From the IMG/VR virus record IMGVR_UViG_2802429241_000009: 39,485 bases of DNA. The stretch is one strand, 5' to 3'. Under the pieces are notes generated by a model. The model had not been told where the DNA came from, made no database searches, and worked only from the letters and a program-made list of their open reading frames with translations. The stretch is from a virus. Its lineage: Duplodnaviria; Heunggongvirae; Uroviricota; Caudoviricetes. The position numbers were made by a program, and so were the translations under genes. Of this stretch, positions 13,812-38,321 are shown in pieces (the stretch's first letter is position 1; every line of letters begins with the position of its first letter).

Positions 13812-13888
13812 TGGCGTGGCATGCAGGATTCGAACCTGCGACCAACCGCTTAGAAGGCGGTTGCTCTGTCCGACTGAGCTAATGCCAC
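13812..13888 (-). tRNA. tRNA-Arg (anticodon UCU), phage-borne
   Basis: 77 nt with full cloverleaf: 7-bp acceptor GTGGCAT/ATGCCAC, D-stem GCTC/GAGC, anticodon stem ACCGC/GCGGT with loop CTTCTAA, T-arm GCAGG-TTCGAAT-CCTGC, encoded CCA; close to E. coli argU as recalled. Confidence 0.85.
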
Positions 13889-30294: not shown

Positions 30295-30303
30295 GGAAGT
30301 GTT

Positions 30304-30477
30304 GTGTTTTTAATTATTTTGAGTGTGATAATTTCTGGTGGGTTGTTATTTATTGACCGCTACAAATATTTTCTTAACCCTCAGACTCAAGCTATTTGCT
30401 GGTTCATCTTTGTTGTGCAGGGAATAGTTCTTGTTGCAAGCCTTATTGAGGGGAGGCCTCTGATTTTTACTGGGTAA
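30304..30477 (+). CDS. Small hydrophobic membrane protein (57 aa, two predicted TM segments)
   Basis: Not in the ORF track; GTG start after AAGGAAG; VFLIILSVIISGGLLFI and ICWFIFVVQGIVLVASLI hydrophobic stretches. Confidence 0.3.
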   Translation: MFLIILSVIISGGLLFIDRYKYFLNPQTQAICWFIFVVQGIVLVASLIEGRPLIFTG

Positions 30478-30489
30478 ATAGGTGACTAC

Positions 30490-30786
30490 ATGCAAGCGAT
30501 AGGATTCATTGTTTATATCGTCGTTGGCCTTTTTCAGTTGGCAGCAATTATGGCTGGGCTTGAATCAAGGTGGGGATTGCACTGGATAATTGCAGCCCCC
30601 ATTGCTTTCATCGTGAGCTATATTCCATTTGTTGGAGCGATTGTTGGTATGGTTGGTGCTGTGGATGTATGGCGGTGGGAGTGGTGGCAGGCTGGCCTTC
30701 TCTTCTTTGGTGGGATCATCTTTGCTATTGTCTGCGGTGGAATGTCATCATTTTTCGAACGGCTATCATTCAGAAAAGGAACGTGA
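30490..30786 (+). CDS. Small integral membrane protein (98 aa, about 3 TM segments)
   Basis: Strongly hydrophobic ORF; GGTGA SD; followed by a hairpin plus T-run terminator. Confidence 0.5.
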   Translation: MQAIGFIVYIVVGLFQLAAIMAGLESRWGLHWIIAAPIAFIVSYIPFVGAIVGMVGAVDVWRWEWWQAGLLFFGGIIFAIVCGGMSSFFERLSFRKGT

Positions 30787-30794
30787 CATGTCAC

Positions 30795-30819
30795 AGGCCG
30801 CTTTCGCGGCCTTGTTTTT
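30795..30819 (+). terminator. Intrinsic terminator after the 98-aa membrane protein gene
   Basis: AGGCCGC-TTTC-GCGGCCT followed by TGTTTTTA; lies between convergent genes. Confidence 0.65.
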
Positions 30820-30979
30820 AACGAATGCCACCGCCACCCGGGCGGGAATCCGCAGAACGCCCACCGCAGCGGGAGCCGTCAGCGGCAGTATCGCTGTCGT
30901 GCTGACAACGACCGGCAAAAGCCTGAGTTGAAGCTACCAGAGACAACAAAACGAACAGTGCAGCAAATGCTTTTTTCAT
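30818..30979 (-). CDS. Signal-peptide microprotein (53 aa; mature peptide about 31 aa with 2 Cys)
   Basis: MKKAFAALFVLLSLVASTQAFA looks like a Sec signal peptide with an AFA cleavage site; convergent with the upstream + gene; competing + ORF 30788..30931 crosses the terminator. Confidence 0.35.
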   Translation of the reverse strand: MKKAFAALFVLLSLVASTQAFAGRCQHDSDTAADGSRCGGRSADSRPGGGGIR

Positions 30980-31051
30980 TGTGAAATTTCCATCCATAAG
31001 CCACCTCAATGTGGCGTCAATGAGTGTAGCACTGACTTTTGTTTCGTCCAC

Positions 31052-31074
31052 AAAAAAAGCCCGCAGCGCTGGCT
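31052..31074 (-). terminator. Intrinsic terminator at the 3' end of the 179-aa membrane protein gene
   Basis: Minus-strand imperfect hairpin overlapping the stop codon followed by TTTTTTTG. Confidence 0.5.
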
Positions 31075-31613
31075 TACCAAAACTTGTACCACGGGGATTT
31101 ATCCTTCAATGGGCAATCCTTCCATCGTGTGGCCAACCATTCATATTCTTTAAAATATGTGTTTATGTTTTCTTTTTCTCTAATGGCTTGTATAAGAGGT
31201 AGCGCAATCTGATAGTTATTTACAACGGAGCTGTAAAATACTTCCTTAATCATGGTCTCATCATAAGTTTTCCGCTTCACGCTCACAGCCATGCGTTCGT
31301 AGAAACCTAGACAGTAAATTATTTCTCTCTTCTCTGTCTTTTCTTCATCCGTAAGATCAGCCTGCCCATTGCTTGGATACATATAAGAGCGGAATGATTT
31401 GTTCGATTCGTGAATGCGGCGCATAGTAGATAGGCCTTTCTTATAATCTACATCAAACCTGCTTTCACCAAGGAATACTGAAGTGTGTACTTTTCTCGCT
31501 GTATTTACATTATAAATAATAGTAGCGATAGCTATGAACAAGCCAAGCGAAACCGCGACTGCACTTACGATTTGAGCCACAGCCATGGCAAATTGCATTT
31601 CTTCACTTAACAC
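31074..31613 (-). CDS. Membrane-anchored hypothetical protein (179 aa), AT-rich gene; candidate superinfection-exclusion or defence protein
   Basis: GTG start after GGAGA; N-terminal TM (AMAVAQIVSAVAVSLGLFIAIATIIY); visibly lower GC than neighbours; hairpin/U-run structures at both ends. Confidence 0.55.
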   Translation of the reverse strand: MLSEEMQFAMAVAQIVSAVAVSLGLFIAIATIIYNVNTARKVHTSVFLGESRFDVDYKKGLSTMRRIHESNKSFRSYMYPSNGQADLTDEEKTEKREIIYCLGFYERMAVSVKRKTYDETMIKEVFYSSVVNNYQIALPLIQAIREKENINTYFKEYEWLATRWKDCPLKDKSPWYKFW

Positions 31614-31630
31614 AAACTGTCTCCAGACAT

Positions 31631-31653
31631 GAAAACGGGGCCTAATGGCCCCG
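31631..31653 (-). terminator. Hairpin plus short U-run between the antirepressor gene and the 179-aa gene (terminator or attenuator)
   Basis: Minus-strand CGGGGCC-ATTA-GGCCCCG followed by TTTTC, ending about 20 nt before the GTG start of the 179-aa gene. Confidence 0.45.
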
Positions 31654-31822
31654 TCATTAAACTATCCGAATGTTAAACGCCTTCGTACTCGTCAAATTTT
31701 CTCATGTGGGCTCCTCCTGTATCGGTGCATAATCGCTATGGATCACCCGTGAGGTAATAGTAAGCTATTCACCTGCAATCTGTACAGAATTATTTAAAGG
31801 CACATCCCTGTGCCGCCGCTCG

Positions 31823-32509
31823 TCAGAAGAACCCTGCCTTGTCGTTGATGTACTCCGCGTGCGTCTGGATATCACGCAGGCATTTGCTCACACCGACGAT
31901 GTAGCAGAACATGGTGGTCAACTCCGCCGCCGCGCCCGATACGTCGTGCCCGTCTTCCTGTAACTGGTTCAGCAGATTCATCAGCAGTGAGTTCTCCGTC
32001 AGGCCGAGAACACCAGACGGCGAGTGAATCAGGCTGCGGTAGCCTGGCTTCAGCGGGGCGCTGTAGGTTTTGTTCTCTATCTTCATCGCCTGCATCACTG
32101 CTGACGCCGTGGCGTTGGCTACCTGGTCGGCAACCATCTTTATGCGTTCTTCCTGCGGGAGCGAGTTTTTAATGTAACTTCCGGTGCGGCGGATCTGAGG
32201 AAGAACCTCACCTGTAACCCATTTACGAAAGCGGTAGGGGATAGTGCCTGGTGTCACCGCATCGCGGCAGCGGAGGATCAGTGTGTAGAGGCCTGACTCG
32301 CTGATAATATTGGTTTCGCCTTGACGACCTAAGTTAAATTTAGCCCTTTCATCATCATCAAGAGATTTGATTGACATGGTGGGGTTTGTCAGTTGAAGAG
32401 CTTTAATAACGTCTTTGGCAACAAACCAAGGATTTCCATCAATAACAATGGCTCGAATGGTTGCTTCTGATTCAAAATGAAAAACAGATGGGGTTACGTT
32501 AGCAGTCAT
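31823..32509 (-). CDS. BRO-N domain antirepressor-like protein
   Basis: N-terminal SVFHFESEATIRAIVIDGNPWFVAKDVIKALQL resembles the BRO-N signature; AGGTG SD before the ATG; long structured leader upstream. Confidence 0.7.
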   Translation of the reverse strand: MTANVTPSVFHFESEATIRAIVIDGNPWFVAKDVIKALQLTNPTMSIKSLDDDERAKFNLGRQGETNIISESGLYTLILRCRDAVTPGTIPYRFRKWVTGEVLPQIRRTGSYIKNSLPQEERIKMVADQVANATASAVMQAMKIENKTYSAPLKPGYRSLIHSPSGVLGLTENSLLMNLLNQLQEDGHDVSGAAAELTTMFCYIVGVSKCLRDIQTHAEYINDKAGFF

Positions 32510-32667
32510 GGCAATCACCTTTTAGTATGGTTAATCACCACCTGAGGTGCAAATCTCGTTGGTGGTGAGACGTACAGGGTTTGCACTACCGGCTAAAAGG
32601 ACCCGGCGCACCTTTCGGTGCCCCTGCACGTCCCACCATAATTCTGGCATGACTGTGCTATACGCAT

Positions 32668-32690
32668 AAAAAAACCACGTCTGGCGTGGT
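32668..32690 (-). terminator. Intrinsic terminator inside the antirepressor upstream region (attenuator or 3' end of a short RNA)
   Basis: Minus-strand ACCACG-CCAGA-CGTGGT followed by TTTTTTTAT. Confidence 0.6.
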
Positions 32691-32750
32691 ATGCGCCTTT
32701 TAGTAATCCGGGGTGCAAATCCCGGCACTGGATTTTGCCAGTGCTCGATT

Positions 32751-32779
32751 ACTATGGCACAAGAGGAGTGCGATGTAAA
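32751..32779 (-). promoter_or_regulatory. Candidate leftward promoter of a short structured RNA / antirepressor leader
   Basis: Minus-strand -35 TTTACA (plus 32774..32779), 17-bp spacer, -10 CATAGT (plus 32751..32756); predicted start near 32744. Confidence 0.3.
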
Positions 32780-32780
32780 T

Positions 32781-32795
32781 TTACCGCAAAGGTAA
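32781..32795. promoter_or_regulatory. Operator-like palindrome TTACC-N5-GGTAA adjacent to a candidate leftward promoter of the antirepressor leader
   Basis: Exact; abuts the candidate -35 (TTTACA on the minus strand). Confidence 0.5.
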
Positions 32796-32873
32796 TGATA
32801 AACGCTGATAAATATAAAAATCAACCGTATTTGGTTGATTGCGTTTAACGCTTGATCACCTGAAAGCAAGATA

Positions 32874-32888
32874 TTACCTTTAAGGTAA
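32874..32888. promoter_or_regulatory. Operator-like palindrome TTACC-N5-GGTAA just upstream of the zinc-ribbon protein gene
   Basis: Exact; overlaps the alternative ATG at 32888. Confidence 0.5.
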
Positions 32889-32908
32889 TGTTATTGTGGG
32901 GAAAAGCA

Positions 32909-33637
32909 ATGGAAGTTTTCTGGATAGTTGTTGGTGTGGTTGCGGTGATTATTTACGTTATCAACCAGAACAAGACTAAGATCTCTGATCGTACGGTCGT
33001 TAATCATAACAAAACGATAAAGACCGAAGATGGGGAGATAACGATTAATCGTACACAGGTGATAGAACACACCTCTACTCAGTTTCAAAAAACTGGAGGT
33101 AATGCGCCTAATATTTCCGCACCTCCTGCTTATGATAGTGCGGTAATCCAGACATATTATAAACAGCAGGAGTTAGCAAAAGAGAGGCAACTGATTCAGC
33201 CAAAGCCGTTTACAGCTGAGCTTCCACCTGGAGTGTCAACGCGTCCGGCATATCATGGAAGATTCCCTGGTGATGACATATCGTCTCAGTCATCTAAAAA
33301 AGCACCTCAGGCAGTATCAGAGCCAGCAAGAATACCTTCTGTATCGCCGCCAAAAGAAGAATCAGCTAACAGAGTTTCAAGTGGTAGCAAGCAGTGCTTG
33401 CGATGCAGAATAAACCTTCCATATGAAAAATTCAGGAAATCGTCAAAAAATCCAGATGGATTGACTAAGTGGTGTGCAAGGTGTCTCGATGGCCCAAAGA
33501 ATACACGCCATATGAAGTGGTGCCCAATTTGTAATGTCCGCAGAAAACGAACCAGTTTTTACCCTAATAATCAAAATGCGGATGGCTTAATGGCATGGTG
33601 CAAAACGTGCTGGGACGAGCACAAAGCGAAACGATAG
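32909..33637 (+). CDS. Membrane-anchored protein with a tandem C-terminal zinc-ribbon-like repeat
   Basis: N-terminal TM (VFWIVVGVVAVIIYVI); Ser/Pro-rich linker; two repeats of C-x2-C-x(17-20)-DGL-x3-WC-x2-C; ATG at 32888 is an alternative start. Confidence 0.55.
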   Translation: MEVFWIVVGVVAVIIYVINQNKTKISDRTVVNHNKTIKTEDGEITINRTQVIEHTSTQFQKTGGNAPNISAPPAYDSAVIQTYYKQQELAKERQLIQPKPFTAELPPGVSTRPAYHGRFPGDDISSQSSKKAPQAVSEPARIPSVSPPKEESANRVSSGSKQCLRCRINLPYEKFRKSSKNPDGLTKWCARCLDGPKNTRHMKWCPICNVRRKRTSFYPNNQNADGLMAWCKTCWDEHKAKR

Positions 33638-33660
33638 GCCGCTCTTGCGGCCTTTTCTTT
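33637..33660 (+). terminator. Intrinsic terminator after the zinc-ribbon protein gene, between convergent genes
   Basis: GGCCGC-TCTT-GCGGCC followed by TTTTCTTT. Confidence 0.65.
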
Positions 33661-33916
33661 ATGTGGTTTGTTTTCGTAGTTGTTCGGCACAATAGTCGAG
33701 ATGTGTTTGCAGATCCTGCATAGACATCTGTGAGCTGGTGACGTAGTTAATCAGTGCAGTCAGTTCGGCAAGTGGGCCATCGACATTAAATCCATCCTTA
33801 TCGAGATCCCGGAGTAATTTCATCAAGTGCGATCCCTCCACCAGTGATCTGACGCCTCCCGGCGTGTGAATCCTTTCGGTAAATCCGTCTTCCAGTGGAT
33901 AGTGATACCGCTGCAT
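33659..33916 (-). CDS. Small antirepressor-domain protein (85 aa), putatively LexA-controlled
   Basis: Homologous by eye to the C-terminal about 80 aa of the BRO-N protein at 31823..32509 (shared IH.P.GV, LM.LL, DG..V.G..AELT, D.QTH..Y); GGAGAAG SD; LexA-box-like site 21 nt upstream. Confidence 0.55.
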   Translation of the reverse strand: MQRYHYPLEDGFTERIHTPGGVRSLVEGSHLMKLLRDLDKDGFNVDGPLAELTALINYVTSSQMSMQDLQTHLDYCAEQLRKQTT

Positions 33917-33935
33917 CTTATCTTCTCCATGTAAT

Positions 33936-33955
33936 AACTGTATATTTATACAGTA
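33936..33955. promoter_or_regulatory. LexA box (SOS box) candidate
   Basis: AACTGTATATTTATACAGTA: CTGT-N8-ACAG with an all-A/T spacer, 18 of 20 matches to TACTGTATATATATACAGTA as recalled; 21 nt upstream of the ATG of the minus-strand gene 33659..33916. Confidence 0.7.
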
Positions 33956-33992
33956 TCAAATAATTTGTTTGCTATCCAGCACGTTTTGCAAA

Positions 33993-34007
33993 TTACCTGA
34001 AAGGTAA
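33993..34007. promoter_or_regulatory. Operator-like palindrome TTACC-N5-GGTAA in the divergent region between the small antirepressor-domain gene and the tailspike
   Basis: Exact inverted repeat. Confidence 0.5.
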
Positions 34008-34111
34008 TATCTATTCGTATTCACAGTCTTTCTATCCATATGTGGTTTTTCAGGTAATAGAATAACCAGATATGCGGCGCAACGGGTGCTGCGACTATCT
34101 GGAGATTTAAC

Positions 34112-36244
34112 ATGACGGTCTCAACCGAAGTTGACCACAACGAATACACCGGTAACGGCGTTACGACATCATTTCCGTATACCTTCCGTATTTTCAAAAA
34201 ATCCGACCTGGTTGTTCAGGTGTCTGACCTGAACGGGAACGTAACAGAATTGGTTCTGGATACCGGTTATACGGTAACAGGGGCGGGCACTTATAGTGGC
34301 GGTTCTGTGGTTCTTCCGTCTCCGCTTGCTACTGGATGGCGAATTACGATAGATCGTGTGCTTGATGTAGTGCAAGAGACAGACCTTCGCAATCAGGGAA
34401 AGTTTTTTCCCGAAGTGCATGAAGATGCCTTTGACTATCTGACGATGCTGATCCAGCAATGTTTTGGATGGTTCAGACGTGCATTGATGAAACCCACGTT
34501 GCTTGCAAAATATTATGATGCAAAGCAAAACAGAATTTCTAACCTTGCAGATCCATCATTTGAGCAGGACGCTGTAAATAATCGCTCAATGCGTAATTAT
34601 GTCGATGCTGCAATCGCCGGGGTTGTTGGTGGTTTTGGCTGGTTTATTCAGTATGGTTCTGGGGCAGTATACAGAACGTTCCAGGATAAGATGCGAGATA
34701 CCGTCAGTGTTCGCGATTTTGGGGCGAAGGGGGATGGTTTTAGTGATGATACCCCATATATTCAGCAAGCAAATGATACAGCCACATCAATTGGTGCCAC
34801 ATTACATTTCCCAAGAGGGGTTTACGTTTGTACTGATGGGATTGATAAAACGTGCGAGTGGACTGGTGTTGGTGCGGCAAAAATAGGTGTATTTCCACTA
34901 AACGATGATAAAGTTTATATGGTTCCAGGAAATAAGCACAAATTGCCTGGAACTTGCCTCTTATTCAAAGGTACGGGTAGTAAGGTATTTACTACAGGAA
35001 GAAGTGATAAATTCTCATCTATGCGTTATTGTATCCGTAATATCGGTCGAAAAGATAAAGGGCTCACTGCATTTGGTAGGGATTTTTCTGTCGTTTGCGA
35101 TTTTGACTTTAAAGATCAAGATGGAAACATAACGCAACCTAATAATGATAATTCTGCGGATTATGATGTTGGGTTGATACTTGACAATACCGATTTGTCA
35201 GGACCAGTTAATGTTACTGTTGGTGGTTACTTTAAAAAATCTGGAATTGTACACATGGGGCAGGATCCCGATGGTTGTACAATTATCAATACACGCACAA
35301 TGGGGAACATTGGTCTTGCTATTATTGGTGATCAAACAGGAACTAACAGTGCATTCAATATGCACGGTGGCGCTATTTTTGGCAATGATCACCATAGTCG
35401 AAACACCGAACAAGGTGTTGAAAAATGGGGTGAGCATGCACTTTACATTGATATTCCATCATCGTCAGGAAACGGTTCTAGAAACGGTATTTCTTTTTAC
35501 GGAACCTGGTTAGCGACTAAGTTGGATGTTCCTGTAAAATATGACAGATGTGGAGCCGTTCAGTATTTTGGTGTGGTGTTTGAGAATGCAACACAAGCAG
35601 GTAGCCAACAAGCTGGAGGTATTAAAAAACAAATTGGAACCAGTAATACAGGTGATATAGGTTTCTTTGGGTGCAGATTTAATTCAGACCAGATACGTAT
35701 TTCTGGTGCCTTATTGGAGACTGCGACGGAATCGACAGTGATCGTTTCTGGAAGTAATGCTGGATATGGTGTTGAATTTTGGAAAGGAAAGGTTGGAGGG
35801 CGTTTTACAGGAAGCAAAAATCAAACAAATATTCAACTAACGGATGATCCAACAAAAACAACTAGTGGTATTGTTCTTCGTCGTGACAATACAGGAAATT
35901 TCCATGTAATGAAAGATAATGACATTAAATTATCAGTTGATGATAAAGGCATTATCACTAGATCATCTTATACAGTTGTTACTGTTTCTGCTGGAGAAAT
36001 TACTGTTACCAGAAACTTTCATAGATTATCTGGAGGGGCGCAAGAGTTATCTACTATTAATGGTGGTAATGAAGGAATGAGGGTAATTCTTACACGTAAT
36101 ACATCAGCGGATGACATAACATTGAAGAATCAGATAGGAAACCTTCGTATCAATGGTGATTTCATGTTAGGTGCTTTTGACACCATCGAATTGATCTACA
36201 TCGGAGGATACTGGAATGAGATTTCACGTGTAAATCGCTCTTAA
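34112..36244 (+). CDS. Tailspike / tail fiber with beta-helix depolymerase-like central domain
   Basis: N-terminus MTVSTEVDHNEYTGNGVTTSFPYTF resembles the conserved podovirus tail-fiber anchor domain; VRDFGAKGDGFSDDTPYIQQA resembles pectate-lyase-type beta-helix starts; distal part AT-rich. Confidence 0.8.
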   Translation: MTVSTEVDHNEYTGNGVTTSFPYTFRIFKKSDLVVQVSDLNGNVTELVLDTGYTVTGAGTYSGGSVVLPSPLATGWRITIDRVLDVVQETDLRNQGKFFPEVHEDAFDYLTMLIQQCFGWFRRALMKPTLLAKYYDAKQNRISNLADPSFEQDAVNNRSMRNYVDAAIAGVVGGFGWFIQYGSGAVYRTFQDKMRDTVSVRDFGAKGDGFSDDTPYIQQANDTATSIGATLHFPRGVYVCTDGIDKTCEWTGVGAAKIGVFPLNDDKVYMVPGNKHKLPGTCLLFKGTGSKVFTTGRSDKFSSMRYCIRNIGRKDKGLTAFGRDFSVVCDFDFKDQDGNITQPNNDNSADYDVGLILDNTDLSGPVNVTVGGYFKKSGIVHMGQDPDGCTIINTRTMGNIGLAIIGDQTGTNSAFNMHGGAIFGNDHHSRNTEQGVEKWGEHALYIDIPSSSGNGSRNGISFYGTWLATKLDVPVKYDRCGAVQYFGVVFENATQAGSQQAGGIKKQIGTSNTGDIGFFGCRFNSDQIRISGALLETATESTVIVSGSNAGYGVEFWKGKVGGRFTGSKNQTNIQLTDDPTKTTSGIVLRRDNTGNFHVMKDNDIKLSVDDKGIITRSSYTVVTVSAGEITVTRNFHRLSGGAQELSTINGGNEGMRVILTRNTSADDITLKNQIGNLRINGDFMLGAFDTIELIYIGGYWNEISRVNRS

Positions 36245-36338
36245 CTTCTTATCGAAAATAGAGGTTATTTTTATTCATATATGGTTTATGTATCATAAAG
36301 CCACCAGTTAATTGGTTACACACTTAAAAGGTGGTTTT

Positions 36339-36743
36339 ATGATAGCTCATCCAACAAGTGAGTCTTTAAATCAATGGCTTAGCATGGGGTCTCTTGCTGC
36401 TGTTATTGCTGGGGTTCCTCCGGAGGTGGCTCTTGGTGCTTTATCTGGCGCGGTGATTTTTGTTACCTCAGCTGTAGAGTATCCGATCCGCCGTCGGGTG
36501 CTACTGTCGATGCTCAGCTTTCTTTGCGGCCTTCTCTTCTACAAACCAGCAGCATCAATTCTTATCGGCATAGCCAGCCTGATCCCTACCATCACGCAGG
36601 ACTCTTTTGAAAAAGGGATTGTTTTCTCTGCTGGCGCATTCGTGTCAGCAATTGTCGCCGTGCGTATTGGTATATGGCTCTATCACCGTTCCGATAATCC
36701 ACGCGAGTTAATTCCGGGGAGAAAAGACGATGGTAACGCATGA
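36339..36743 (+). CDS. Holin/antiholin-like multi-pass membrane protein
   Basis: Hydrophobic ORF at the start of the lysis cassette; ATG after AAAGGTGG (track ORF starts at TTG 36312). Confidence 0.5.
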   Translation: MIAHPTSESLNQWLSMGSLAAVIAGVPPEVALGALSGAVIFVTSAVEYPIRRRVLLSMLSFLCGLLFYKPAASILIGIASLIPTITQDSFEKGIVFSAGAFVSAIVAVRIGIWLYHRSDNPRELIPGRKDDGNA

Positions 36744-37038
36744 TTTTTTTTTGCTTATCACCAATGCAGTTATTTGCACTGGCATAGCAATTCGCGTTGT
36801 CACATTCCGGCGTAACGGCTCTCAACACCGAAGGTGGGGAGGATGGCTTGCTTATTTCCTGATTGTTGCTGCGGCCAGTATTCCTGTTCGTGTCGCCTAT
36901 GCAATCTGGTTACGTACGCCAATGGCTGTGGATTTATCTGAGGTCATTATCAACGCTGTCATGCTAGCTGCGGTTATTAAAACGCGCGGTAACGTCGTTC
37001 AAATTTTCAAAGTATCGAGGTCTAAATATGGAGATTAA
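36730..37038 (+). CDS. Holin-like membrane protein (about 3 TM segments)
   Basis: 102 aa hydrophobic protein immediately upstream of the endolysin. Confidence 0.55.
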
Positions 37039-37657
37039 ACAATTCCAGCGAGCTGCTGGTATTAGCGAGGCGTTGGCCTCACGCTGGTTCTCGCATATAA
37101 CTTCTGCGATGAAAGAGTTTGGTATCAGCAAACCCGAAGATCAGGCAATGTTTATTGCTCAGGTCGGGCATGAGTCTGGGGGCTTCACCCGGTTGCAGGA
37201 AAATTTCAACTACAGCGTCACCGGACTGGCTAACTTCGTTCGGGCTGGGCGTCTCACTCAGGGACAGGCCAACGCATTGGGGCGCCGTGCTGGTGAACCA
37301 CCATTGCCACTTGATCGCCAGAGAGCGATCGCCAATCTGGTGTACAGCAAACGCATGGGGAACAATGCCTCTGGTGATGGCTGGAATTACCGTGGCCGCG
37401 GACTTATCCAGATTACCGGTTTGAATAACTATCGTGATTGCGGAAACGGCCTGAAAGTGGACCTGCTGGAGAATCCTGAACTGTTGGCGCAGGACGAATA
37501 TGCGGCTCGTAGCGCGGCGTGGTTCTTCGCCAGCAAAGGATGCATGAAGTATACCGGCGATATTGCACGTGTAACTCTGATTATCAATGGTGGCCGGAAC
37601 GGCATCGACGACCGGCGCGCGCGGTACATCACTGCCAGTAAGGTGCTGGCGGTATGA
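37028..37657 (+). CDS. Endolysin, glycoside hydrolase family 19-like
   Basis: [15 protein letters not shown] resembles the GH19 signature; GHESGGF segment; position between holin and Rz. Confidence 0.8.
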
Positions 37658-38136
37658 TCTGGGCATTCGCAAAAGCATACTGGAAACAGTTGGTTATCAT
37701 GGCGATGCTTGCTGTTCTGGTCATATCAGGAGTTGTTGCCTGGAATGTACACGGTAGCCGTCAGTACGACGCCGGGTATGCACAGGCGAAGGAAGACCGC
37801 AAAGCTGAAGATGAGAGAGTTCGTCAGCACTACGAACAGGAGAAAGCGACCAATGAACGTGAAGCTCAGCAGAGGATCGACCAGGCGCGCAATGATGCTC
37901 TTGATGCTGCCGCTCGCGCTGGCCGGTTGCAGCAACAACTCTTTGCCATCCGTGAGCAGCTCAGGCAGTATAACGCCATTGTCGGCGCTGGGACGTCAGC
38001 CGCAGACACCGGAGTTTTGCTTGCCGACGTGCTCAGCAAATCTCTCGAGAGAAACAGACAACTGGCAGAGTATGCTGACCGGGCATCCGAAGCCGGAAGA
38101 GTCTGCGAAAAACAGTACGACACTCTGACCAGATAG
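37654..38136 (+). CDS. Rz-like inner-membrane spanin
   Basis: N-terminal TM then coiled-coil, Arg/Gln-rich periplasmic domain; ATGA overlap with the endolysin stop; contains an embedded +1-frame lipoprotein ORF. Confidence 0.7.
37853..38128 (+). CDS. Rz1-like outer-membrane lipoprotein spanin (embedded in Rz, different frame)
   Basis: ATG after AGGAGA; lipobox LPLALAGC; Pro/Ser-rich mature part; entirely within the Rz gene. Confidence 0.55.
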   Translation: MNVKLSRGSTRRAMMLLMLPLALAGCSNNSLPSVSSSGSITPLSALGRQPQTPEFCLPTCSANLSRETDNWQSMLTGHPKPEESAKNSTTL

Positions 38137-38321
38137 CATGGCATTTTTCATGGTACTGATTTCCGGTGACGGTATATAAAACGGTACTAGAAAAATGAAG
38201 TTTTGGAAAAACGTTATCACTCAATTGGTTATGATTGTCGTAAATAATTGAGTGGGAATAAACCCGAACACTAAATGCTGAGGTTTTCTATTCGTACGAG
38301 GCTTCAGCATATTTTGGTAAC

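Follow-up and report, generated by a model that had tools for sequence, protein, structure and literature searches.

Phage tailspikes raise a simple question at the locus described here: has the gene been inherited as one piece, or does it join parts with different histories, and in that case where do the parts meet, where did the exchanged one come from and what might it recognise? We have addressed it in the IMG/VR record IMGVR_UViG_2802429241_000009, a Caudoviricetes sequence of 39,485 nucleotides (nt) referred to below as the window, i.e., the whole stretch of DNA analysed. An earlier note, made from the sequence alone, had described the gene at 34112–36244 as a mosaic tailspike. The gene is an open reading frame (ORF) on the plus strand with an ATG start that codes for 710 amino acids (aa), and it matches the tail, tail spike and tail fiber families of PHROG. 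Its RefSeq counterpart, with an identical coding sequence, is WP_096271702.1, found in complete genomes of Escherichia coli and named “glycosyl hydrolase family 28-related protein.” The prophage that carries WP_096271702.1 is inserted between guaA and yfgI/yfgH, and the window represents the same kind of prophage. An integrase gene is found at its left end. Genes for terminase, portal, capsid and tail come next, then a variable region and the tailspike gene, and finally a pair of holins with a GH19 endolysin and a DUF2514 protein. On both sides the tailspike gene is flanked by DNA that is 94–97% identical to phages vB_EcoP_ZX5 and phiv142-3, both classified as Uetakevirus (the epsilon15/phiV10 group), and, in agreement with this placement, the tailspike gene lies directly upstream of the holin-endolysin cassette (lysis genes at 36312–38136). 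We consider it very likely that the gene is the single tailspike of a Uetakevirus-type temperate podovirus prophage, made of the anchor of its lineage and an imported, portable receptor-binding module.

Break points of the exchanged cassette

The clearest evidence of exchange comes from the comparison with sister Uetakevirus phages. In BLASTN alignments EC.W1-9, ZX5 and phiv142-3 were 95–97% identical to the window from 33637/33659 to 34699–34752. Past this point the match was lost, to come back only at 36344/36345, in the holin gene, and continue at 94% identity through the lysis genes. In bins of 30 nt, 26–30 of the 30 positions were identical up to gene nt ~570–600 (aa ~196, ...FQDKMRD), the identity decayed over gene nt 600–660 and was random beyond, so that DNA identity to the sister phages fell from ~97% to random within ~60 nt. 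The loss of identity at 34700 and its return at 36344 indicate that the exchanged cassette spans ~34700–36343; it consists of the module plus a spacer of 99 nt, with the left crossover in the conserved first-turn motif of the beta-helix. This motif, DFGAKGDG, is kept in the otherwise unrelated cassettes of EC.W1-9, ZX5 and phiv142-3. The nearest relative of the exchanged part was found in gp023 of the phi92-like myovirus alia, 73.7% identical in nt over 34715–36222 and 77% identical in aa over aa 188–710.

The horizontal exchange of the distal part proposed in the earlier note is thus borne out by the abrupt loss and regain of 95–97% DNA identity, and also by the presence of the module in T7-like podoviruses and a phi92-like myovirus and behind N-termini of P22 and other types. 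Its position had to be corrected, however: a shift in composition does occur near 34900, where the note had seen it, but the true break point of homology is at 34700–34752, ~150 nt upstream.

No terminator-like site was found in the spacer (36245–36343). For this reason we rejected the idea that it corresponds to the downstream “motif three” or terminator of lytic-phage receptor-binding proteins (RBPs). The RBP downstream motifs of lytic phages are absent from Uetakevirus prophages (Pas et al., 2023; PMC10408124).

Two further observations concern the region of the left junction. The allele of the O146 strain JNEC-KY171 (L015:3001-5133) was 79–87% identical to the tailspike gene over nt 1–450, 97–100% over nt 451–810, which span linker and junction, and 82–94% over the rest. 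This pattern suggests a later homologous exchange of anchor alleles around the shared junction, within one tailspike subtype. The linker motif GGFGWFIQxGxGAVxRTFQDKMR (34607–34699) was seen just ahead of the module in two further proteins, P0008, which is a T7-type fiber, and P0033, and the portable unit may in some lineages start ~25 residues upstream of the DFGAKGD motif.

The anchor of the lineage

Over aa 1–165 the N-terminal part of the protein was 68–72% identical (68.5–71.5%) to the tailspikes of epsilon15 and phiV10, and over aa 1 to ~196 the identity to E. coli Uetakevirus phages reached 91–94%, with matches extending to aa ~200–240. The tailspike therefore has the ~200-aa N-terminal anchor homologous to that of the phiV10 and epsilon15 RBPs; the Uetakevirus RBP anchor has been defined as the first 205 aa of the phiV10 RBP (Pas et al., 2023; PMC10408124). 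Among solved structures, aa 1–179 matched residues 1–183 of the podovirus tailspike Dpo31 (E 3e-31), i.e., its domains D1 and D2. The earlier note had recognised a conserved particle-binding N-terminus, and homology to the epsilon15 and phiV10 anchors and to Dpo31 D1 and D2 confirms it, but its length is ~196 aa rather than the 100 or so codons proposed. The T7 tail fiber family PF03906 stayed below its gathering cutoff (15.3 bits vs. 25.2, E 0.016, aa 135–161 only), and the N-terminal domain of T7 gp17 is to be regarded as a functional analogy, not as membership at the level of Pfam.

The anchor is found with very different C-termini. For at least 14 PHROG tail families the match is limited to aa 1 to 166–225, and behind partial anchor matches the annotated C-termini include endosialidase, SGNH/GDSL hydrolase, beta-helix and head-binding types, among others. 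The anchor was present in 497 of 5,426 complete E. coli genomes, the whole gene in only seven.

The module behind other anchors

Relatives of aa 185–710 were found behind the T7-type N-terminal domain (PF03906), the P22 head-binding domain (PF09008; P0019), the short N-terminus of alia and other N-termini in proteins of 800 aa. Some are also joined to C-terminal chaperone domains (PF13884, S74). The exchanged cassette was 47–48% identical in aa to T7-like fibers, and with the metagenomic P0008-P0013 included next to Berlinvirus P151 and Rahnella phage Sarma103 the module was 47–52% identical over aa ~180–701. A HMMER scan of 1.84 billion representatives returned 190 clusters at E ≤ 1e-30, and among these the module starts anywhere from residue ~10 to ~1100.

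Together with the break points, these data are the basis of the explanation that we propose. Two units would make up the protein. The first is the lineage-specific anchor (aa 1 to ~196), with a tail-docking beta-sandwich, a coiled-coil neck and a short linker, which would co-evolve with the virion. The second is the portable receptor-binding module (aa ~197–710), a beta-helix followed by a C-terminal beta domain, which together with ~100 nt of downstream spacer would have been imported by recombination. The left crossover would have fallen in or beside the widely conserved first-turn motif (V)SV(R/K)DFGAKGD..DDT and the right one just upstream of the holin gene. Table 1 lists the features of the gene and its surroundings.

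Table 1. Features of the tailspike gene and of the adjoining arms of the prophage (positions in the window).
Feature	Position	Strand	Evidence
Tailspike (receptor-binding protein) gene, 710 aa	34112..36244	+	ORF listing, identical RefSeq coding sequence, PHROG tail families
Anchor, aa 1-165: predicted virion-attachment beta-sandwich (~aa 8-100) and helical coiled-coil neck (helices 105-172)	34112..34606	+	Identity to epsilon15/phiV10, Dpo31 match, structural model
Linker, aa 166-196 (AAIAGVVGGFGWFIQYGSGAVYRTFQDKMRD); last stretch ~97% identical to sister Uetakevirus phages	34607..34699	+	30-nt bins, BLASTN end points
Recombination junction, aa 197-215 (TVSVRDFGAKGDGFSDDTP); DFGAKGDG at 34715-34738 (aa 202-209)	34700..34756	+	End of Uetakevirus homology, start of alia homology at 34715
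Right-handed parallel beta-helix, aa 197-530, putative glycan-binding/-cleaving body	34700..35701	+	
DPD motif, aa 385-387 (D387 invariant, P386 nearly so)	35264..35272	+	36-sequence alignment
NDHHSR motif, aa 425-430 (D426, H427, H428, R430 invariant), candidate active site	35384..35401	+	36-sequence alignment
E491, invariant acidic residue one rung past the NDHHSR motif	35582..35584	+	36-sequence alignment
Beta-rich C-terminal domain(s) (aa 531-710), where the gene is richest in AT	35702..36241	+	All-strand secondary structure, pLDDT ~90
Intergenic tail of the exchanged cassette	36245..36343	.	No homologous DNA in alia (aligned only as far as 36222) or in the sister Uetakevirus phages
Conserved left arm, including an 85-aa ORF at 33659-33916 (-)	33637..34111	.	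95-97% identity to EC.W1-9, ZX5 and phiv142-3
Conserved right arm: two holins, GH19 endolysin, DUF2514 spanin-like protein	36344..38196	+	94% identity to EC.W1-9, ZX5 and phiv142-3

Fold and putative activity of the module

The earlier note had read a beta-helix start of the pectate-lyase kind in DFGAKGDG. The motif lies indeed inside a match to PF12708 (Pect-lyase_RHGA_epim) over aa 198–256 (38.3 bits, E 1.6e-9, above the gathering cutoff of 27), and the structure prediction agrees. The model has values above 90 of the predicted local distance difference test (pLDDT) over aa ~190–710, and shows a right-handed beta-helix up to ~aa 530 and then an all-beta C-terminal region. The Foldseek results were consistent with a beta-helix fold for the central domain, the top structural neighbours of the module being mostly active depolymerases, epimerases or lyases. 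In an alignment of 36 homologs, down to 28% identity, D387, D426, H427, H428, R430 and E491 were invariant and D265, D266, D346 and D447 nearly so. Judging only from their spacing of ~30–43 residues, the invariant residues may lie on successive rungs of one face.

We did not find support for membership in glycoside hydrolase family 28. The GH28 catalytic domain PF00295 gave no match at E ≤ 1 in the tailspike, and for this reason the “GH28-related” name in RefSeq is a generic one and not a family assignment; in PDB polygalacturonases the family profile finds no more than the first-turn motif (profile positions ~76–130). The only NCBIfam hit was a sub-threshold match of 43 residues to a rhamnogalacturonidase model (23 bits vs. 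a cutoff of 500), which is uninformative.

There are also bacterial homologs (P0020-P0028), free-standing proteins of ~550 aa with 32–34% identity and signal-peptide-like N-termini, in which the NDHHSR motif is kept. One of the secreted homologs (33% identical; metagenome contig L012:3043-4701) is flanked by two sulfatase genes. Since the invariant D, H, R and E residues and the sulfatase context of this bacterial homolog fit a glycan-degrading enzyme, a trimeric polysaccharide depolymerase is the most likely function of the module, and we regard it as probable. The protein would trimerise, and a surface polysaccharide would be bound and cut in the groove of the beta-helix, with D346, D387, D426/H427/H428/R430 and E491 along its walls, which would let the virion reach the outer membrane.

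The last ~100 residues (window ~35940–36241, aa ~610–710; profile positions 504–601) were found as 5–8 tandem copies in unrelated long proteins (P0171, P0179, P0181, P0186 and P0196). The C-terminal domain would thus be a self-contained unit that can be repeated, and it may bind carbohydrates.

Receptor and host serogroups

By the classification of Pas et al. (2023; PMC10408124), who required at least 30% identity over at least 60% of the receptor-binding domain (RBD), the tailspike belongs to the alia-type RBD subtype: the 77% identity over aa 188–710 extends over the whole module and 74% of the protein. The same authors found prophage relatives of the alia RBP (≥75.7% identity) in O7, O23 and O146 strains and suggested a receptor common to several serogroups, e.g., a K-antigen (Pas et al., 2023; PMC10408124).

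The gene occurs in seven complete E. coli genomes, and in each of them we typed the O-antigen gene cluster. An allele at least 99% identical was found in two O23 strains (F719 and LR882057), and alleles of 99.4% in Ec-RL2-1X (O7; one aa difference) and EFF60 (O2/O50). Alleles of ~91% were present in JNEC-KY171 and 2013C-3033 (both O146) and in STEC1585 (O153/O178). The seven carriers therefore have five types of O-antigen cluster instead of a single serogroup, and the receptor is probably not one single O-antigen. Two of these clusters contain insertion sequences: in JNEC-KY171 (L010:19137-21351) IS2 splits the rfbA-like gene of the O146 cluster, and in EFF60 (L009:7623-10054) ISAs1 copies are found in the O2/O50 cluster. 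These two strains may lack full O-antigen expression.

One alternative is that the module acts like the endoglycosidases of epsilon15, phiV10 (O157) and PAS61 (O146), in the classical O-antigen-specific manner and adapted to the O-antigen that the lysogen itself carries. Tailspikes of Uetakevirus are as a rule specific for an O-antigen, the RBPs of prophages usually fit the serogroup of their host (PMC10408124; PMC11522302), and two of our carriers are O23 and two O146. However, the allele conserved at 99% or more extends over O23, O7 and O2/O50 and the 91% allele over O146 and O153/O178, and among 19 O23 and 17 O146 genomes only two of each serogroup have the gene. Moreover, the O146-directed RBD of PAS61 is a different module, matching this protein only over aa 1–165 (PMC11522302), alia was isolated on the rough strain K-12, and Pas et al. 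left the alia subtype out of their serogroup-specific set for the same reason (PMC10408124). An O-antigen specificity of this kind is thus rather unlikely.

A tentative and rather doubtful idea is that an uncharacterised depolymerase family, a beta-helix in which the DPD, NDHHSR and E residues do not vary and which counts ~190 clusters at 50% identity, becomes recognisable for the first time in this module. The substrate of the module would then be a glycan common to many E. coli serogroups, such as a common capsule or a conserved exopolysaccharide, and not a serogroup-specific O-antigen. Other candidate receptors have been considered. The NGR glycan was rejected, given that the NGR binding of Justusliebigvirus belongs to another fiber, with a deacetylase domain, and colanic acid is an unlikely target, having been assigned to other proteins of alia and Justusliebigvirus. 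In the recent literature on receptor prediction and on the BASEL collection we found no receptor for this module.

It is also conceivable that the distal part has no enzymatic activity and serves for receptor binding alone, as an adhesin or fiber of the kind of the beta-helix adhesin PfbA. Against this, D387, D426, H427, H428, R430 and E491 are kept across homologs of 28–77% identity, including the free secreted bacterial proteins near sulfatases, and enzymes predominate among the top structural neighbours, which makes a pure adhesin quite improbable.

Base composition and direction of transfer

The distal part of the gene had been described in the earlier note as visibly AT-rich from about 34900, and the calculation agrees with it. 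The GC content is 0.458 over 34112–34900, with 0.40 at third codon positions (GC3), and drops to 0.383 (GC3 0.266) over 34901–36244. These are the most AT-rich 1.3 kb of the window, within the lowest 0.5% of the windows of equal length along the 39.5-kb sequence. The window as a whole has a GC of 0.489 and the virion (structural) genes range between 0.49 and 0.55 (GC3 0.41–0.62). By maximum likelihood the change-point is at 34879, with a likelihood ratio that was reached in only 4 of 500 codon shuffles. Taking the parts of the protein separately, the values were GC 0.453 and GC3 0.436 for the anchor (aa 1–165) and GC 0.376 and GC3 0.256 for the C-terminal domain (aa 531–710). The drop is strongest at third codon positions, indicating a signature at the level of nucleotides and not merely of amino acid composition. 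A uniform composition along the gene, with homology of the whole protein to one tailspike family, is therefore not what we observed.

That the gene was inherited vertically as a whole and became AT-rich by local mutation bias or by the functional and amino acid constraints of beta-helix tailspikes (N, T, S, I, K, D) is very improbable: GC at codon positions 1 and 2 also differs somewhat (0.55/0.43 in the first part vs. 0.46/0.42 in the second) and other cassettes on the same anchor are AT-rich, but the largest drop is at third positions (from 0.40–0.43 to 0.27), the identity to sister phages collapses in ~60 nt and returns at the holin gene, a module 77% identical in aa is present in a myovirus otherwise without similarity to this gene, and the P151 homolog, with a GC3 of 0.485, shows that the fold does not force a low GC.

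The composition of the module in its different genomic contexts also bears on the direction of transfer. In alia gp023 its GC3 is 0.29 and that of the neighbouring genes 0.23–0.28; in the Berlinvirus P151 fiber it is 0.485 in a genome with a GC of 0.48; in this prophage it is 0.27 over a backbone of ~0.5. The module therefore fits the resident genome in alia and P151 but not here, and the simplest reading is that the Uetakevirus lineage acquired it from a pool of low-GC phages and that it is still un-ameliorated. The source would be an AT-rich pool of phage receptor-binding cassettes, of which gp023 of alia is the nearest member sequenced today.

Several points weigh against this reconstruction. 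Alia is only 74% identical in DNA and hence not the donor, and the direction of transfer is read from composition alone. The distal cassettes of the sisters EC.W1-9 and phiv142-3 are equally AT-rich (GC3 0.25), suggesting that the low-GC pool is general; low GC may thus be common to such modules instead of the mark of a specific donor. As to structure, the model, made for a monomer, has low confidence over the N-terminal 175 residues (pLDDT <50), where the helices at 105–172 are predicted. A search of the PDB with the single protein and with the 36-sequence profile matched only the anchor (Dpo31) and the generic first-turn motif. Because solved structures share only that motif with the module, the catalytic residues and the type of reaction (hydrolase or lyase) are guesses, and the roles of this tailspike and of alia gp023 in enzymatic cleavage and adsorption are predicted ones. 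We nevertheless keep the combination of a lineage anchor with an imported module as the preferred reading.

Other features of the prophage

The comparison with the prophage of F719 (NZ_OY754392.1) shows that the tailspike is 100% identical in both, while the boundaries of tail-gene ORFs and the accessory region differ, and therefore the tailspike cassette is present in at least two Uetakevirus backbones. The accessory region is variable and occupies 30300–34111 in the window, between the tail genes and the tailspike, with a DUF4760 gene (31074–31613, minus strand), a Bro-N anti-repressor-like gene (31823–32518, minus strand) and an ORF of 249 aa (32888–33637, plus strand) with an N-terminal membrane segment and Cys-rich zinc-ribbon-like repeats at its C-terminus. 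The F719 prophage, otherwise near-identical, lacks this last ORF and has a YafO toxin gene in its place. The prophage also has a tRNA-Arg gene (anticodon tct; 13812–13888, minus strand), which lies between those for the terminase and the portal. The lysis genes of the right arm match PF16931, PF05449, PF00182 and PF10721.

Relation to known tailspikes and significance

Modular tailspikes such as those of P22, Sf6 and HK620, of K1E, K1-5 and K1F and the “Swiss-army-knife” tailspikes of phi92 combine a conserved particle-binding domain with exchangeable enzymatic modules and have been transferred across families. In these systems the substrates are defined and the catalytic sites solved, unlike in the module family described here.

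The closest parallel is gp023 of alia (Justusliebigvirus; YP_009985126.1), also found in vB_Eco_J-01, which has the same receptor-binding module, with the same first-turn motif, the NDHHSR, DPD and E residues and a similarly low GC3. However, its N-terminus is short (~50–60 aa) and of myovirus type, whereas here there is a Uetakevirus anchor of ~196 aa, and the lytic phage of 147 kb that carries it has several tailspikes or fibers, while the protein described here is the sole RBP of a temperate podovirus of 39 kb. The fibers of Berlinvirus P151 and Rahnella phage Sarma103 differ by their T7 gp17-type N-terminus (PF03906) and, in P151, by a module GC3 at the level of the phage that hosts it (0.485). 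With the Uetakevirus tailspikes (epsilon15 gp20, phiV10, phiv142-3 Orf6, vB_EcoP_ZX5, EC.W1-9, PAS61) this protein shares the anchor and the position just upstream of the holin/endolysin cassette, but their distal modules are unrelated (endosialidase-like, SGNH, other beta-helices). The closest solved relative of the anchor, Dpo31 of the marine podovirus Carin-1 (PDB 28lx/28mg; 8ck1), has a beta-sandwich on the virion base (D1), a trimeric coiled coil (D2) and a beta-helix depolymerase (D3). Its beta-helix body is unrelated in sequence beyond the first-turn motif and it has an autocleaved chaperone domain (D4) that is absent from this tailspike.

Conservation of the Uetakevirus anchor and exchange of RBDs across genera, including Justusliebigvirus and Kuttervirus, have been described before (Pas et al., 2023, PMC10408124; PMC11522302). 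The mosaic found here is thus real but of a kind already published, including the alia-type subtype in prophages, and will not surprise the specialist. What is added are the coordinates of the crossovers at the level of bases (34700–34756 and ~36344), the location of the left one on the DFGAKGDG first-turn motif, the compositional case for the direction of transfer, the DPD/NDHHSR/E signature of an unstudied module family and a wider spread over serogroups.

The strains open to attack by a phage, or by an engineered tailocin, depend on the tailspike module, and here one cassette is common to a temperate podovirus, phi92-like myoviruses and T7-like phages. If the module recognises a serogroup-independent glycan it would be useful in the design of phages or depolymerases of broad range, and for the phages themselves such a shared substrate would mean a way of entry independent of serogroup, open to a temperate podovirus and to phi92-like myoviruses alike.

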